Assembly (NCBI GenBank): GCA_964016885.1
Contig: OZ024752.1
Location: forward strand, 26,164,001 to 26,228,000
Length of the DNA: 64,000 nt
DNA from: Eledone cirrhosa
Lineage: Eukaryota
Reading direction: 5' to 3'
In this document: one piece after another, positions 3,343-63,787 of the stretch
Layout of the letters: each line of letters starts with the position of its first letter
Numbering within the stretch: the stretch's first letter is position 1
Position numbers and translations under genes: made by a program
Notes under the pieces: model-generated
Database searches by the model: none
What the model saw: the letters and a program-made list of their open reading frames with translations, nothing else
Told to the model about the DNA's origin: nothing

Positions 3343-3520
3343 TCAGGACCCCGACGGCTGAGCTCCGGCCGATTCGACAGCTAGATGCGAACTGTCAAAA
3401 CGGCCGGAGCTCGGCCGTCGGGGTCCTGACTCTTTTCCTATTACCCACTCTACTACTCTAAGTATTGAGTACTCTGGTGCGTTATGGTCAACCTGGTAAC
3501 TTACCACACCCTCATTGTTT
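3343..3520 (+). mobile_element. PLE-type fold-back fragment (GAAACGGC...GCCGTCGGGGTC family)
   Basis: Palindrome at 3343-3429 followed by a tail shared with 36240-36335, 32604-32680 (rc) and 43113-43200 (rc). Confidence 0.75.
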
Positions 3521-3524
3521 CTGA

Positions 3525-3779
3525 ATATAATATAATATAATATAATACAATATAGTATAAAACACAAGACAACACAACACAACACAACACAACACAACAC
3601 AACACTACACTACACTACATTACACTACATTACATTACATTACATTACATTACATTACATTACATTATATTATATTATATTATATTATATTATATTATAT
3701 TATATTATATTATATTATATTATATTATATTATATTATATTATATTAATTACATTATATTAATTACATTATATTATATT
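3525..3779. repeat. Graded pentanucleotide microsatellite (AATAT, ACAAC, ACACT, ACATT, ATATT)
   Basis: Directly visible stepwise change of the repeat unit. Confidence 0.9.
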
Positions 3780-3917
3780 GTGGATTGGCAGTATCGGTAG
3801 AGGGTCGAACCCCATGCTTTGCAGCATAGAGTTACGGCCCTTTTTGATCTGAGTTCAAATCCCGCCGAGGTTAACTTTGCCTTTCATCCTTATGGGGTCG
3901 ATAGAATAAAGTACCAC
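3780..3917 (+). mobile_element. tRNA-derived Nin-type SINE, 3' truncated
   Basis: A box TGGCAGTATCGG, B box GAGTTCAAATCCC, body GCCTTTCATCCTTATGGGGTCGATA..AAAGTACCA. Confidence 0.85.
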
Positions 3918-4331
3918 ATACAAGGAAGAAAAGCGTTACCCTAGATTTCAAGGTCCTATATTGACCATATTTTAGAGGAGTTTGAAGACACCGATAAAAG
4001 TATAGCGCGGCCATATCTTCTTTCTTGTCTTAATCTGTTTCTTCATCTTGGCACAAAAGAGAGATAGTTGGAAATTGGTTTTCCATGTTCTTTATTATGG
4101 ATAAGAGTTGAATCTTGTTATTCTAGAATTTCACCTGTGTACAAACAGTATGAGCTTCTTTGTCTGGTGATCTTGTGAGTACAATTAAAATTCTACACTT
4201 TTTTCTGGGACATCTTTTGGAAAACAGTGCGTAGCGTGACCTTGAGCTAACCCTCTGCGAAACGCACGTATCAGGACGATACACAATAAAAACTTCATAC
4301 ATATAAAGAGAGAAGAATAGTGTAATAATAT

Positions 4332-58800: not shown

Positions 58801-60283
58801 CCACCACCACTACAATCACCACCACCACTACTATCACCACCACCACTACGATCACCACCAGCACTACTATCACCACAACAATCACCACCACCACCACTAC
58901 TATCACCACAACAATCACCACCACCACTACAATCACCTCCACCACTACAATCACCACCACCACCACTACTATCACCACCACCACCACTACAATCAACACC
59001 ACCACCACCACCACTACTATCACCACCACCACTACAATCACCACCACCACCACTACTATCACCACCACCACCACTACAATCAACACCACCACTACTATCA
59101 CCACCACCACTACAATCACCACCACCACCACTACAATCAACACCACCACTACTATCACCACCACCACTACAATCACCACCACCACCACTACTATCACCAC
59201 CACCACTACAATCACCACCACCACTACTATCACCACCACCACTACAATCACCACCACCATCACTACTATCACCCCCACCACTACAATCACCACCACCACT
59301 ACTATCACCACCACCACTACTATCACCACCACCACTACAATCACCACCACCACTACAATCACCACCACTACTATCACGACCACCACTACAATCACCACCA
59401 CCACTACTATCACCACCACTACTATCACCACCACCACCACTACTATCACCACAACAATCACCACCACCACTACAATCACCACCACCACTACAATCACCAC
59501 CAGCACTACTATCACCACCACCACTACAATCACCACCACCACTACTATCACCACCACCACTACGATCACCACCACCACTACTATCACCACAACAATCACC
59601 ACCACCACCACTACTATCACCACAACAATCACCACCACCACCACCACTACTATCACCACCACCACTACAATCACCACCACCACCACTACTATCACCACCA
59701 CCACCACTACAATCAACACCACCACTACTATCACCACCACCACTACAATCACCACCACCACCACTACTATCACCACCACCACTACAATCACCACCACCAC
59801 TATTATCACCACCACCACTACAATCACCACCACCACTACTATCACCACCACCACTACAATCACCACCACCACTACTATCACCACCACCACTACTATCACC
59901 ACCACCACTACTATCACCACCACCACCACTACAATCACCACCACCACCACTACTATCACCACCACCACTACAATCACCACCACCACTACAACCACGACCA
60001 CCGCCACCATCACCGCTACAACCACCACCACCATCACCACCACCGCCACTACAACCACCACCACCGCCACTACGACCACCACCACCACCACCACAACGAC
60101 CACCATCACCACCACCGCCACTAAAACCACCACCACCACTACAACCACCGCAACTACAACCACCACCACCACGACCGCCACTACAACCACCATCATCACC
60201 ACCACCACCGCAACCACAACCACCACCACCACCACCACTACCACCAACACCACTACTACTACAACCACCACCACACCACCACC
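55880..60283. repeat. Minisatellite of about 18 bp (ATCACCACCACCACTACW) built from trinucleotides
   Basis: Directly visible, with an internal higher-order duplication of about 1.7 kb. Confidence 0.95.
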
Positions 60284-60330
60284 ATAACTTCCAATAGATT
60301 TATTTATCGGAGAAAAGATCACAGAAATAC

Positions 60331-62870
60331 TTGTTCTGTTGTAGTTGTTGTTGTTACTGCCGTTGTTGTTGTTGTTGTTGTTGTTGTTGTTATTATTGCT
60401 GCTGCTGTTGTTATTGTTGTTATTGTTACTGCTGTTGTTGTTACTGCAGTTGCTGTTGTTGTTGTTATTGTTATTGTTGTTGTTGTTACTGTTGTTGTTG
60501 TTATTGCTTCTGTTGTTGCTATTGTTGTTGTTACTGCTGTTGTTGTTGTTTTTGTTGTTGCTGTTGTTGTTACTGCTGTTGTTTTTATTGTTGTTATTAT
60601 TGCTGCTGCTGCTGTTATTGCTGTTATTGTTGCTGCTGTTGTTGTTACTGCTATTGTTATTTTTATTGTTGTTATTATTGCTGCTGTTGTTGTTATTGCT
60701 GTTATTGTTGCTGTTGTTGTTGTTACTGCTGTTGTTATTATTATTGTTGTTGTTATTATTGCTGCTGTTGTTGTTATTGCTGTTATAGTTGCTGTTGTTA
60801 TTGCTGTTATTGTTGCTGCTGTCTCGTTCATTGCTCCAGTACGTAGAAATATTTTGGTCGTTCACATTGTCATACTGTTGTTGTTGTTGCTACTGCTGCT
60901 ATTGTTGTTACTGATTGTAATGGTGATGAAGACGATAGCGGTTGTAGTAGTGGTGGTGGGGATGTTTGTAGTTGTAACGTTGGGTGTTGTAGTGGTAGTG
61001 GTAGTAGGGAGGTGTTGTGGTGGTGGTAGTGGTAGGGAGGTGTTGTGGTGGTGGTAGTAGGGAGGTGTTGTGGTGGTGGTAGTGGTAGGGAGGTGTTGTG
61101 GTGGTGGTAGTATGGAGGTGTTGTGGCGGTGGTAGTGGTAGTAGGGAGGTGTTGTGGTGGAGGTAGTGGTAGTAGGGAGGTGTTGTGGTGGAGGTAGTGG
61201 TAGTAGGGAGGTGTTGTGGTGGTGGTAGTAGGGAGGTGTTGTGGCGGTGGTAGTGGTAGTAGGGAGGTGTTGTGGTGGTGGGAGTGGTAGTAGGGAGGTG
61301 TTGTGGTGGTGGTAGTGGTGGTGGTGGTAGTATGGAGGTGTTGTGGTGGTGGTAGTAGGGAGGTGTTGTGGCGGTGGTAGTGGTAGTAGGGAGGTGTTGT
61401 GGTGAAGGTAGTGGTAGTAGGGAGGTGTTGTGGTGGTAGTGGTAGTAGGGAGGTGTTGTGGTGGTAGTGGTAGTAGGGAGGTGTTGTGGCGGTGGTAGTG
61501 GTAGTAGGGAGGTGTTGTGGTGAAGGTAGTGGTAGTAGGGAGGTGTTGTGGTGGTAGTGGTAGTAGGGAGGTGTTGTGGCGGTGGTAGTGGTAGTAGGGA
61601 GGTGTTGTGGTGGAGGTAGTGGTAGTATGGAGGTGTTGTGGTGGTGGTAGTGGTGGTGGTGGTAGTATGGAGGTGTTGTGGTGGTGGTAATGGTGGTGGT
61701 GGTGGTATGGAGGTGTTGTGGTGGTGGTAGTGGTTACTGTAGTGTTGTGGTAGTAGTGGGGTGTTGTGATGGCAGTGTTGTAGTTGTAGTGGTAGTGGTG
61801 GTGGTGGTGGTGGCATCATCATCATGGTTGTGGTCGCCGTTGTCATCATTATCATCATTACACAACCACAACCACCATCATCACCATATGAACATTATCA
61901 CCATCATCATCATCCTCACCATCACCACCACCCACCATCATCACCACCATCATCATCACCATCAACATCATCATTACCATCATCCTCGTCCTCATCAGTA
62001 CCACCACCACCACCACCACCATCATCATCACCACCGCCATCACCCCCACCATCATATCACCACCATCATCATCGACAACAACATCAAAAAGATGTTTATT
62101 TCATTCTCTATTTCATCGCCTCTGAAGAGAATTTTCTCATTAAATCTCACTGGAGTCTCCTGCTGACATCCTGGTTATTGTGGTGGTGGTAGTGGTAGTG
62201 GTGGTGGTGGTGTGGTGGTGGTGTGGTGGTGGTGTGGTGGTGGTGTGGGGGGGTGCTGGTTGTGGTGGTGGTGTGGTGTGGTGGTGGTTGCGGTGGCGGC
62301 GGTGGTGGTGGTGTGGTGCTGGTTGTGGTGCTGGTGCTGGTGGTGGTACTGGTGCTGGTTGTGGTGGTGGTGGTTGTGGTGGCGGTGCTGATGCTGGTTG
62401 TGGTTGTGGTGTGGTGGTGGTTGTGGTGGTTGTGGTGGCGGTGGTGGTGGTGGTGGTGGTGGTGGTGGTGTGGTGCTGGCGGTGGTGTGGTGGTGGCGGT
62501 GTGGTGGTGGTGGTGGTGCTGGTGCTGATGGTGGTGCTGGTTGTGGTGGTGTTGGTTTTGGGTGGTGGCGTGGTGGTCGTTGTGGTGTTGGTTGTGTTGG
62601 TGGTGGTGATGCTGCTGCTGCTGCTGCTGCTGCTGCCGGTTGTGCTGATGCCAGTGCTAGTGCTGGTGTTGCTGACGGTGGTGTTGGGGGTGATTATAGT
62701 TATAGTTGACGTAGTTGTTGTTGTTGTTGGTGGTGGTGGTTGTGGTGCTGCTGCTGGTGGTAATAATGCTGCTGGCAGCGGCGATGGTGGTGGCGGTGTT
62801 GGTGGTGATGGCAGTGGTATTGGTTTTGTTATTCTTGACGTTGTTGTTGTTGGTGACAGTTGTGGTTTTG
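60331..62870. repeat. Compound low-complexity block: (GTT/GCT/ATT)n, GGTAGTAGGGAGGTGTTGTGGT minisatellite, (CAT/CAC)n, (GGT)n
   Basis: Directly visible. Confidence 0.92.
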
Positions 62871-63569
62871 GTTAAATGCGACAGACTAGGTGTTGTCTTT
62901 TCTTGTTGTAGGTGATTGGGTGGAGGTGTCATCTTTGTAAGAAAATATACTTATCTCAAGATGGTAAACATAGTTCCTAAAATTCCCTCTATAGAACTGT
63001 TTCAAGAAATCGGAGAAAATACGCCAACCATCGATCTTACTAATTAGTATCAATCACCAATTATCGATTTTAGTAATTAGCATTCCAAGACCAAGATTTC
63101 TATTATCAGTAGGTTGGTTGTCTAAACTACCTGCACAGGGTGTAATTTTAAAATGTTCCGCACATGGTTTTAAAGTCACGCTTTAAATAATCAGATATTA
63201 CAGTAAGGAATGCTAAAAATAGCTCCAAGCTCGACCAATTAATGCAACTCGAGTAATTAAAAAATATTAAAACCAGGAATATCCTAAATTTAGGTTTAAT
63301 GAATACTATTATTAATTTTCCAAAAACGCTTCTCTCACTTAATTCCCTCTTGTTTTTCCTTGGTGGGAGAGTAAGGTCCGATACATTGAATATAGTTCAT
63401 TTTCCATTGGATACAAGCTTATTGTTCTCCGTGTTTCATTTTTTACGTTATACTTACTATGTATGTACATCGAGTGCTTCTTTTGGTACCACCACCAGTA
63501 ATTCACTGAACCATAAACACTATATATATATGTATTTACATATATATGTATATATATATATATATAGTA

Positions 63570-63787
63570 ATAATAATAAATTTGAAGACTAAAATCCAAA
63601 GAGGGCTCGATAAGGATAAATATATATCAAATATATAAGAACCGTAGAGCAAATATTTATTAAAATAACAGATTAAAGTTTAAGCAAAGAATCGCTGCTT
63701 TCACCCTTAACGGGATCTTCTGAAGATCCCGTTAAGGGTGAAAGCAGCCATTTTTTGCTTAAACTTTAATCTGTTATTTTATTAAAT
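63570..63787. mobile_element. PLE fold-back pivoting on the HHR core
   Basis: ...ACGGGATCTT-CTG-AAGATCCCGT...; (TA)n flanks. Same family as 9146-9375. Confidence 0.85.

Follow-up and report, generated by a model that had tools for sequence, protein, structure and literature searches.

Fold-back insertions of 5′-truncated Penelope-like elements in Eledone cirrhosa, and their turning points relative to the hammerhead ribozyme

Endonuclease-positive Penelope-like elements (PLEs) leave 5′-truncated insertions in which an inverted 5′-truncated copy adjoins the 5′ end, a single end bears a tail, a hammerhead lies near the 3′ end and (TA)n serves as target; both the formation of the inverted ends and the role of the hammerhead are presented as open in the accessible text of Craig et al. 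2021 (PMC8557442). The insertions described here share this anatomy, with longer tails (~45–90 nt versus 30–40 nt). Most of them have shrunk to 150–450 bp, and that accessible text does not map junctions onto the ribozyme. In Adineta vaga Penelopes, palindromes at inverted pLTR junctions were read as self-priming on an antisense template, so both the palindromes and this reading of them are already published in the accessible part of Arkhipova et al. 2013 (PMC3846280). Head-to-head inverted repeats, junction palindromes, an optional tail and microhomology joints are common to both systems; that study predates the discovery of hammerheads in PLEs, and the arm asymmetry found here favours two primed cDNAs.

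In vitro, the Poseidon PLE protein of Anolis cuts and extends both target strands, uses two start sites that flank the tail, and has no need of hammerhead catalysis, according to the available text of Frangieh et al. 2024 (PMC11167929). Its AT-rich targets and its two tail-bounding start sites can be likened to the fold-backs here, whereas Poseidon belongs to a different clade and the joining step lies outside the available text of that study. Type I hammerheads of PLEs, a U3-A8 core variant, and opposite-strand motif pairs 100–700 bp apart that were ascribed to truncated PLEs appear in the available text of Cervera and de la Pena 2014 (PMC4209133). All three recur here, but several hammerheads of the window depart from the minimal form of that text, with a genuine helix III and a long helix II. 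No paper mapping PLE junctions onto hammerhead helices was found in a literature search made largely outside subscription papers and in texts without supplements.

Fold-back insertions in the window

The window is a 64,000-nt stretch of Eledone cirrhosa DNA (GCA_964016885.1, OZ024752.1, 26,164,001–26,228,000, forward strand), and coordinates are window-relative. Masked self-BLAST found 21 local inverted repeats against 0–1 per shuffle (10 shuffles). The palindromes proposed by an earlier sequence-only reading are thus real; all 11 of its apices (11/11) were recovered at coordinates that hold, and most flanks consist of (TA)n, as it had described, or of another microsatellite. A short target-site duplication is masked by such flanks. 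A few of the 21 repeats are pairs of a SINE-like repeat and not fold-backs. Junction statistics were taken on 19 insertions (38 arm ends); left unscored were 18556–18849 (decayed, one arm cut short), 1772–1843 (no hammerhead), 33640/36360 (core not found), the SINE-like pairs 3780/4381, 11913/12428 and 54643–55080, and solo arms at 940, 5079, 17950 and 44687. Additional copies were not found in metagenome, viral and prokaryote collections. Many Rfam miRNA matches, sub-threshold and lying on microsatellites and palindromes, were rejected.

The fold-backs are 5′-truncated PLE insertions of several families. Each has element 3′ ends at both outer borders and a junction of its own, and the tail usually sits on one arm only, beside an inverted 5′-truncated copy; 10716–10808 is tailless on both arms. 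The PLE origin assigned by the sequence-only reading is borne out by this match with published insertion anatomy and by a GIY-YIG-type frame in family A. The features are as follows.

3334–3520, plus strand: family A stump; arms 3334–3380 and 3392–3438, spacer 11 nt; tail arm stops 5 nt 5′ of GAAA, tailless arm after another 11 nt
15100–15280, plus strand: decayed family A stump, absent from the earlier list; junction again in the helix II region
32590–32777, minus strand: family A stump; arms 32657–32716 and 32718–32777, spacer 1 nt; junction maps to 36198–36200 of the intact copy
43112–43313, minus strand: family A stump; arms 43193–43252 and 43254–43313, spacer 9 nt, or 1 nt if one inner mismatch is allowed; junction within the helix II region, 35–44 nt upstream of the cleavage site
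33790–36335, plus strand: family A long insertion; inverted tailless arm 33790–34269, then direct 5′-truncated PLE 34270–36335 with tail; arms 479/480 identical
34268–35041, plus strand: open frame of 257 aa, C-terminal linker and GIY-YIG-type endonuclease
36149–36242, plus strand: putative intact type I hammerhead of family A; U3-A8 core 36154, long helix II 36162–36214, GAAA 36215, predicted GUC cleavage after 36237; inverted copy at 33810–33893
36258–36335, plus strand: one-sided tail of family A; tailless end at ~36255–36257
8708–9121, plus strand: family B; arms 8708–8866 and 8875–9038, spacer 8 nt; each arm carries a hammerhead motif, and the turn is at a natural 8-bp hairpin 5′ of the ribozyme
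14372–14808, minus strand: family B; arms 14461–14628 and 14641–14808 (166/168 identity), spacer 12 nt; each arm has a complete hammerhead (core 14562 on minus, core 14707 on plus), with the apex ~60 nt 5′ of the core
15527–15707, plus strand: family B inversion without palindrome; tailless arm ends in helix II and is joined, with a short duplication, to a tail-only arm
9145–9375, plus strand: family C; arms 9145–9209 and 9223–9287, spacer 13 nt; tail arm begins within the core, tailless arm 13 nt longer
63566–63787, minus strand: family C; arms 63655–63720 and 63722–63787, spacer 1 nt inside the core; the pivot is a natural micro-palindrome (3+1+3) on the core's 5′ edge
9553–9774, plus strand: family D; arms 9553–9617 and 9639–9703 (65/65 identity), spacer 21 nt; junction in the 5′ strand of helix I, 20-nt slippage duplication
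10716–10808, plus strand: family D stump in (TACA)n; arms 10716–10755 and 10757–10796, spacer 1 nt, immediately 5′ of the core
17415–17621, minus strand: family E; arms 17482–17518 and 17585–17621, spacer 66 nt containing core and helix II; tail arm (minus) begins 2 nt 5′ of the scissile bond; the entire hammerhead (core 17529, cleavage 17586) lies in the tailless arm (plus)
42600–42778, minus strand: family E relative; tail arm begins 4 nt 5′ of the scissile bond, while the tailless one stops 9 nt 5′ of GAAA
42870–43065, plus strand: family E; tail arm begins 3 nt 5′ of the scissile bond, while the tailless one stops within helix II
6380–7058, unstranded: family F; each arm has a complete hammerhead (core 6750 on minus, core 6937 on plus), and both lie downstream of a 106-nt spacer; SINE-like repeat in the left arm (~6481–6675)
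18490–18849, unstranded: family G; arms carry a decayed hammerhead-like motif, with the apex ~80 nt 5′ of the core; excluded from counts
43424–43882, plus strand: family H; short inverted arm and 1.24 units of a 308-bp repeat; long arm crosses a degenerate hammerhead and continues in the preceding unit; microhomology 2 nt
44020–44240, minus strand: family I; arms 44057–44147 and 44148–44240, spacer 0 nt; hammerhead motif in both arms, perfect apex ~20 nt upstream of the core
15819–16070, plus strand: family K; arms 41/41 identical; U3-A8 hammerhead within the 121-nt spacer, neither arm end inside it

A motif scan gave 23 hammerhead matches, as motif-level calls, against 1–3 in shuffles, and at this motif level the pseudo-LTRs carry a hammerhead. 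Rfam returned one sub-threshold HH9 match at 13028–13100 (32.4 bits against a gathering score of 52, among 150 of 276 matches listed); further Rfam searches gave no hammerhead match, none of the matches listed reaching threshold. The hammerheads of families C, G and H and of copy 10724 were assigned by eye, and that of family D has GUA as its cleavage site with a proper helix III.

The frame at 34268–35041 contains CxCx5C, a CxxC before the conserved E and a CxH after N, and lacks CCHH, all hallmarks of the Hydra clade, as well as a VIYQC...AYIG motif followed downstream by R, H, E and N (by eye), as expected of an endonuclease-positive PLE. Its cysteine motifs are those given for Hydra-clade elements in the accessible text of PMC8557442, and on these motifs the family A endonuclease would be of Hydra-clade type; this reading applies to family A, families B–K having no ORF in the window. 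A Pfam search of the frame gave no match, and two longer homologues were found, one with PF26215. The copy is truncated before the RT core, so that the telomerase-related reverse transcriptase of endonuclease-positive PLEs, and with it the region of the RWK and DKT motifs of the Hydra clade, is absent from it.

Turning points and the hammerhead

Many junctions do lie on or beside the hammerhead, as had been claimed (11 of the 19 scored insertions, judged by the shorter arm). In most families the hammerhead lies 15–110 nt upstream of the start site, and short cDNAs would therefore end in it by position. It holds 21 of the 38 arm ends against 20.7 expected from pooled arm lengths (p = 0.56, permutation with landmarks set by hand and with low power, because the hammerhead windows overlap across families). 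Arm ends fall in the hammerhead in 20 of 26 cases in families A, C, D, E and I, and in 1 of 12 in families B, F, H and K, whose hammerhead is further from the start. Turning points in the window are no commoner on the ribozyme than its closeness to the copying start predicts, and the proposal that the ribozyme sets the shape of the insertion finds no support in this low-powered count.

A uniform spread of junctions had been named as an outcome that would speak against a link with the ribozyme. The spread is not uniform, the junctions being clustered within families (p = 0.005), but the landmark varies: helix II in A, the core edge in C and D, the cleavage triplet in E and non-ribozyme sites in B, F, H, I and K, with no hammerhead excess in the window. 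In the four short family A copies, all eight arm ends (8/8) lie 27–44 nt upstream of the cleavage site; because no short copy of this family keeps the core, the placement in helix II is taken from one relative (36149–36242). The helix II loop had been named as the apex at 3343, 32681 and 43204. The helix II region is right, but the 32657 junction falls on the 3′ side of the apical stem (36198–36200) and not in the terminal loop (36189–36192). The apex given as 63715–63726 is inside the core as described, but the canonical-looking plus-strand core at 63720 was created by the fold itself, other copies reading CAGAAGA. The long insertion turns well away from the hammerhead, 460 and ~1970 nt 5′ of the cleavage site.

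In 12 of 19 insertions the two arms have ends no more than 21 nt apart but starts separated by 45–90 nt, which needs a site-specific stop or pairing and not length alone. Spacers measure 0–1 nt in 4 of 19 and 39–1507 nt in 7 of 19. At the five junctions with known natural context, microhomology is 8, 3, 2, 1 and 1 nt, never in a ribozyme helix register, and the suggestion that ribozyme helices serve as snap-back sites finds no support at these junctions. A single 8-bp hairpin serves as a pivot, at 8866; it keeps its natural loop, lies ~45 nt upstream of the core, is no part of the hammerhead and occurs unrearranged at ~1085–1107 (minus strand). Arm ends lean to paired positions (mean rank 0.60, n = 16, p = 0.05, the ends not being independent).

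Public sequence data show that family A has two fixed 3′ ends: loose TA letters stand behind 36257 in 75, 3 and 84 contigs and in 3444 reads, and behind 36324 in 1231 reads (X1 and X4 being one sample). Read depth drops 10-fold across helix II and ~40-fold beyond, a drop confounded by subfamily divergence. Among the 15 of 40 joints listed, 5 of 11 opposite-strand joints have one end in the ORF and 5 of 11 have one at 36197–36207, and contig-supported joints occur in 1–2 contigs per run at depth 5–38 versus 3–34 for ordinary pieces. Palindromes are badly handled by assemblers, which bears on joint depth. The coordinate 36251 in joints may be an arm end or an alignment break from subfamily divergence, and for such joints the other coordinate was used, equally cautiously. 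Piles of RAD read starts and ends in X20, which likely reflect restriction sites and fixed read length, were set aside.

Proposed priming, arrest and joining of the two arms

In LINE-1 twin priming, two target strands prime two cDNAs whose microhomology joining yields a 5′ inversion; the internal site at which the second primer anneals varies, and no overlap arises between the two parts. Here, in contrast, both cDNAs start at fixed sites and overlap, which makes the product palindromic, and 15527–15707 is the L1-like case without overlap. We consider it probable that the insertions are built from two short cDNAs, primed at both cut strands of the microsatellite target and joined head to head. 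One cDNA would begin at the end of the RNA tail and the other at a fixed internal, tailless site; both would usually halt ~35–100 nt past the internal site, to be united by end-joining with 0–3 nt of microhomology or occasionally by annealing at a natural inverted repeat, the only place where they can pair, since both copy one sequence. Local RNA structure probably adds family-specific stops, not solely at ribozyme helices. The match with PLE insertion anatomy, the in vitro extension of both target strands, the two fixed 3′ ends of family A, the frequent tail on the shorter arm, the joints with an end in the ORF, the lack of a hammerhead excess among arm ends and the tail-only arm of 15527–15707 count for two-ended priming, and spacers of 0–1 nt would suit annealing of two strands better than a hairpin loop. 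Against stops set purely by length stand the closely spaced arm ends in 12 of 19 insertions, the hot zones of families A and E, and the clustering within families.

These last features are what a folded hammerhead would explain if it were a roadblock, with both cDNAs stalling at its helices or three-way junction and the fold setting stump size and symmetry. All eight short-copy ends of family A lie in helix II or its loop, the tail arms of family E (3/3) at the NUH triplet and the C and D junctions at the core edge; among the 15 of 40 joints listed, 5 of 11 opposite-strand joints have an end at 36197–36207, where depth steps down, and the ends lean slightly to paired positions. However, overall enrichment in the hammerhead is absent, the landmark varies by family, 10 of 10 family A arms extend through the GC-rich helix III, cDNAs run through the entire ribozyme in family B (4 of 6 ends) as well as in families F, I, H and K, and the depth step and alignment ends may stem from subfamily divergence. 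We therefore regard general stalling at the fold as unlikely, and it is doubtful that the hammerhead, as roadblock and not catalyst, fixes the size and palindromic shape of most genome copies by family-specific halts (helix II in A, the three-way junction in E). Under another model a single cDNA, or an antisense RNA, folds back on a hairpin, in many cases a hammerhead helix, and copies itself, after which the endonuclease removes one arm's tail; snap-back on ribozyme helices is the view of the sequence-only reading, and the ribozyme-free form is the self-priming model in the accessible text of PMC3846280. Short spacers in 12 of 19 insertions, the natural 8-bp hairpin with loop retained at 8866, and a candidate natural 13-bp helix II at 43205, in a subfamily represented by rearranged copies, would fit; near-identical arms in young copies would as well, though two-ended priming also predicts them. 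Yet of the 13 decidable cases, 5 carry the tail on the longer arm and 8 on the shorter, an arrangement beyond a single snapping-back cDNA unless trimming follows, and spacers are of 0–1 nt in four and 39–1507 nt in seven insertions. At 17518 the two strands of helix I lie next to each other, unmerged, so helix I pairing did not make that joint; 32657 is outside the helix II register of the intact relative, and among the five checkable junctions a hairpin was rebuilt once, at non-ribozyme 8866. Snap-back is accordingly rather improbable.

Very little speaks for run-off of the cDNA at an RNA 5′ end made by self-cleavage. The family E tail arms all start beside the scissile bond, and single joints end at 36235 and 36238 (among the 15 of 40 listed), but the three E arms carry 2, 3 and 4 bases upstream of the bond that a cleaved template would lack, the other eight scored families show no such clustering, and the available text of PMC11167929 found catalysis dispensable in vitro and no RNA-seq ends at the site. 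Amplification of the palindromes as DNA MITEs is scarcely credible: they are short, palindromic and in TA targets, but all 14 junctions compared (families A–E) differ, as expected from the retrotransposition that had been proposed over MITE amplification. The tail makes the ends asymmetric, many copies of one fixed unit with symmetric termini are not seen, and joints have the low contig depth of ordinary pieces (among the 15 of 40 listed).

On present evidence the fold-backs are an ordinary insertion product of known elements. Such hairpins can pass for MITEs or miRNA precursors in annotation. A genome rich in these stumps is good ground for testing, by junction mapping, the origin of inverted ends and the role of the hammerhead, and the tail on the short arm together with family-specific hot zones constrains the joining step. 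If the roadblock were true, PLE hammerheads would gain a role that needs no cleavage.

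Fold-back insertions and their Penelope-like anatomy

Masked self-comparison of the window gave 21 local inverted repeats, where 10 shuffles yielded 0-1 apiece, and arm-by-arm alignment placed all 11 apices named in the sequence-only reading, bearing out the palindromes described there. The palindromes were sorted into families by self-BLAST. In families A-E one arm extends past the other, the extra stretch (the tail) being ~80-90 nt in A-D. The long copy of family A (33790-36335) is 2.5 kb in length with a 480-nt inverted arm, and contains a 257-aa open frame whose cysteine motifs are those by which the Hydra clade of Penelope-like elements is defined (PLEs; definition as excerpted from PMC8557442). 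It also carries an intact hammerhead motif whose core is of the U3-A8 type, known from PLEs according to an extract of PMC4209133. Public contigs and reads aligned to 34270-36338 show fixed 3′ ends at two places, one near 36257 and the other at 36324-36338.

The structure of such truncated stumps is already known. In the available portions of these papers, the PLE insertion unit combines a truncated copy in inverted orientation with a tail on one side, within (TA)n (PMC8557442), palindromes at the inverted junction were recorded in 2013 and interpreted as self-priming (PMC3846280), and opposite-strand hammerhead pairs were recorded in 2014 (PMC4209133). The host, an animal and perhaps a cephalopod, has a genome rich in microsatellites. 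A motif scan of the window picked out 23 candidate hammerheads, where shuffles gave 1-3. Rfam backs one hammerhead, sub-threshold, among the matches listed, and two local Rfam searches gave no hammerhead match; the hammerheads are therefore putative ribozymes, called from the motif.

Other repeats in the window are as follows:

12676-14315: non-LTR retrozyme-like array in which a 470-bp unit is repeated ~3.4 times at 99% identity, terminating in (TA)n; all full units contain a minimal type I hammerhead that is intact (cores at 13047, 13517 and 13987)
52183-52875: second PLE endonuclease frame, decayed, with a CxCx5C linker; after it, at ~53600-53740, comes an end that resembles a pseudo-LTR and includes a hammerhead-like motif
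33615-33728 and 36362-36465: older inverted pair, hammerhead-like in its 3′ half, on either side of the long family A copy, which suggests that one PLE landed in the TA run in the middle of another
32657-32777: in two places the tail arm agrees with the subfamily of insertions 3343 and 43205 and the tailless arm with that of 33790; these sites, too few to carry weight, hint at arms from two different templates
10183-10276, 29209-29293, 19022-19069, 32543-32576, 42075-42140, 44395-44428, 54395-54471: hammerhead motifs standing alone, from other families; the U3-A8 core occurs in some
20640-26820 (-): long GC-rich non-LTR retrotransposon-like element with an (AAT)n end; endonuclease- and RT-like stretches recognised by eye in the DNA
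3780-3916, 4330-4520, 6481-6675, 12370-12560, 19600-19790, 32070-32250, 47940-48125, 54643-55080: tRNA-SINE-like repeat of very high abundance, in several cases as inverted pairs; the left arm of family F is split by one copy
45640-46570, 55850-60300, 60940-62800: long arrays of minisatellite and ACC/GGT-rich tandem repeats, strand bias reversing at ~60300

Arm ends relative to the hammerhead

The scored set comprised 19 insertions (38 arm ends), with hammerhead landmarks placed by hand; 21 of the 38 ends lie inside the hammerhead.

Arm ends inside the hammerhead, and hot zone, by family
A: 8 of 10; helix II
B: 1 of 6; hairpin region upstream of the hammerhead
C: 3 of 4; core 5′ edge
D: 3 of 4; core 5′ edge
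E: 6 of 6; cleavage triplet
F, H, I and K together: 0 of 8

Shuffling arm lengths among insertions gave an expectation of 20.7, and hence no hammerhead excess of arm ends (p=0.56): start site and ribozyme are in most cases 15-110 nt apart, and the shorter arm measures 36-92 nt in 13 of the 19 insertions; this shuffling is blind to direction, short arms that reach the ribozyme and a ribozyme that shortens arms being the same in its outcome. The ribozyme-specific pivot, by which hammerhead helices were proposed to act as snap-back or template-switch sites shaping the insertions, is not supported in the window. The informative contrast comes from the families whose ribozyme is further from the start (B, F, H, K), where 1 of 12 ends falls inside the hammerhead. 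Against a pure length model, arm ends cluster by family (p=0.005), and the two ends are no more than 21 nt apart in 12 of the 19 insertions. Arm ends lean weakly to paired bases (p=0.05, n=16), as judged from proxies and with ends that are not independent.

Depth was compared in two of the public runs aligned to the family A copy. Depth in X1 was ~3 million over the last 137 bp, 297,000 in the bin of the core and helix II, and 7,000-129,000 in the 27 upstream bins; the corresponding values in X3 were 521-1009 at the 3′ end, 82 and 7-89. This pattern fits heavy truncation at the ribozyme, and also 3′-end conservation across subfamilies. Since the literature searched, mostly at the level of listings, gave no paper that places PLE junctions on the helices of a hammerhead, the question of where junctions lie relative to the ribozyme may be new.

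Origin of the head-to-head junction

Two cDNAs, each primed separately, would be joined head to head in the account that we favour, whose priming and joining steps we infer; LINE-1 twin priming offers a comparison. If instead one tail-primed cDNA snapped back, the short arm should be a subset of the long arm. The tail, its side read by eye from arm alignments, lies on the longer arm in five insertions (33793, 15828, 9566, 8712, 63670), as against the shorter arm in eight (3343, 43205, 9160, 15538, 17505, 42688, 42887, 43430), with 6 of the 19 assigned to neither. Snap-back with later trimming of one tail is unlikely. At the five junctions whose natural upstream sequence is visible in another copy, the joint shares 8, 3, 2, 1 and 1 bases; the 8-base joint is a hairpin outside the ribozyme, and the 3-base joint a micro-palindrome at the core edge with no helix. 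Both strands of helix I are kept side by side at the 17518 junction, and spacers are 0-1 nt in four insertions.

Synthesis might also stall at the folded hammerhead, in family E at the three-way junction, a possibility that we regard as doubtful though somewhat better placed than snap-back. The three tail arms of family E reach 2-4 bases beyond the scissile bond on its upstream side, as would be expected if the template was uncleaved; for this reason such a stall is favoured over ribozyme cleavage with cDNA run-off at the cut end, which is highly improbable.

Among the joints in the public runs, 11 of the 15 listed (15 of 40) change strand: five have an end at 36197-36207, five have one in the ORF, and one is tail-to-tail. 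For those backed by contigs, a run contributes 1-2 contigs with depths of 5-38, and by this measure none of them shows amplification. In vitro, as reported in the accessible part of PMC11167929, a PLE protein acts on both strands of the target, cutting them and extending them from two start sites that bound the tail, and ribozyme catalysis is not required for this cutting and extension. Given the tail and arm counts, the microhomology at joints, the short spacers and this two-site priming, the best account of these PLE insertions is probably a head-to-head joint between two primed cDNAs.
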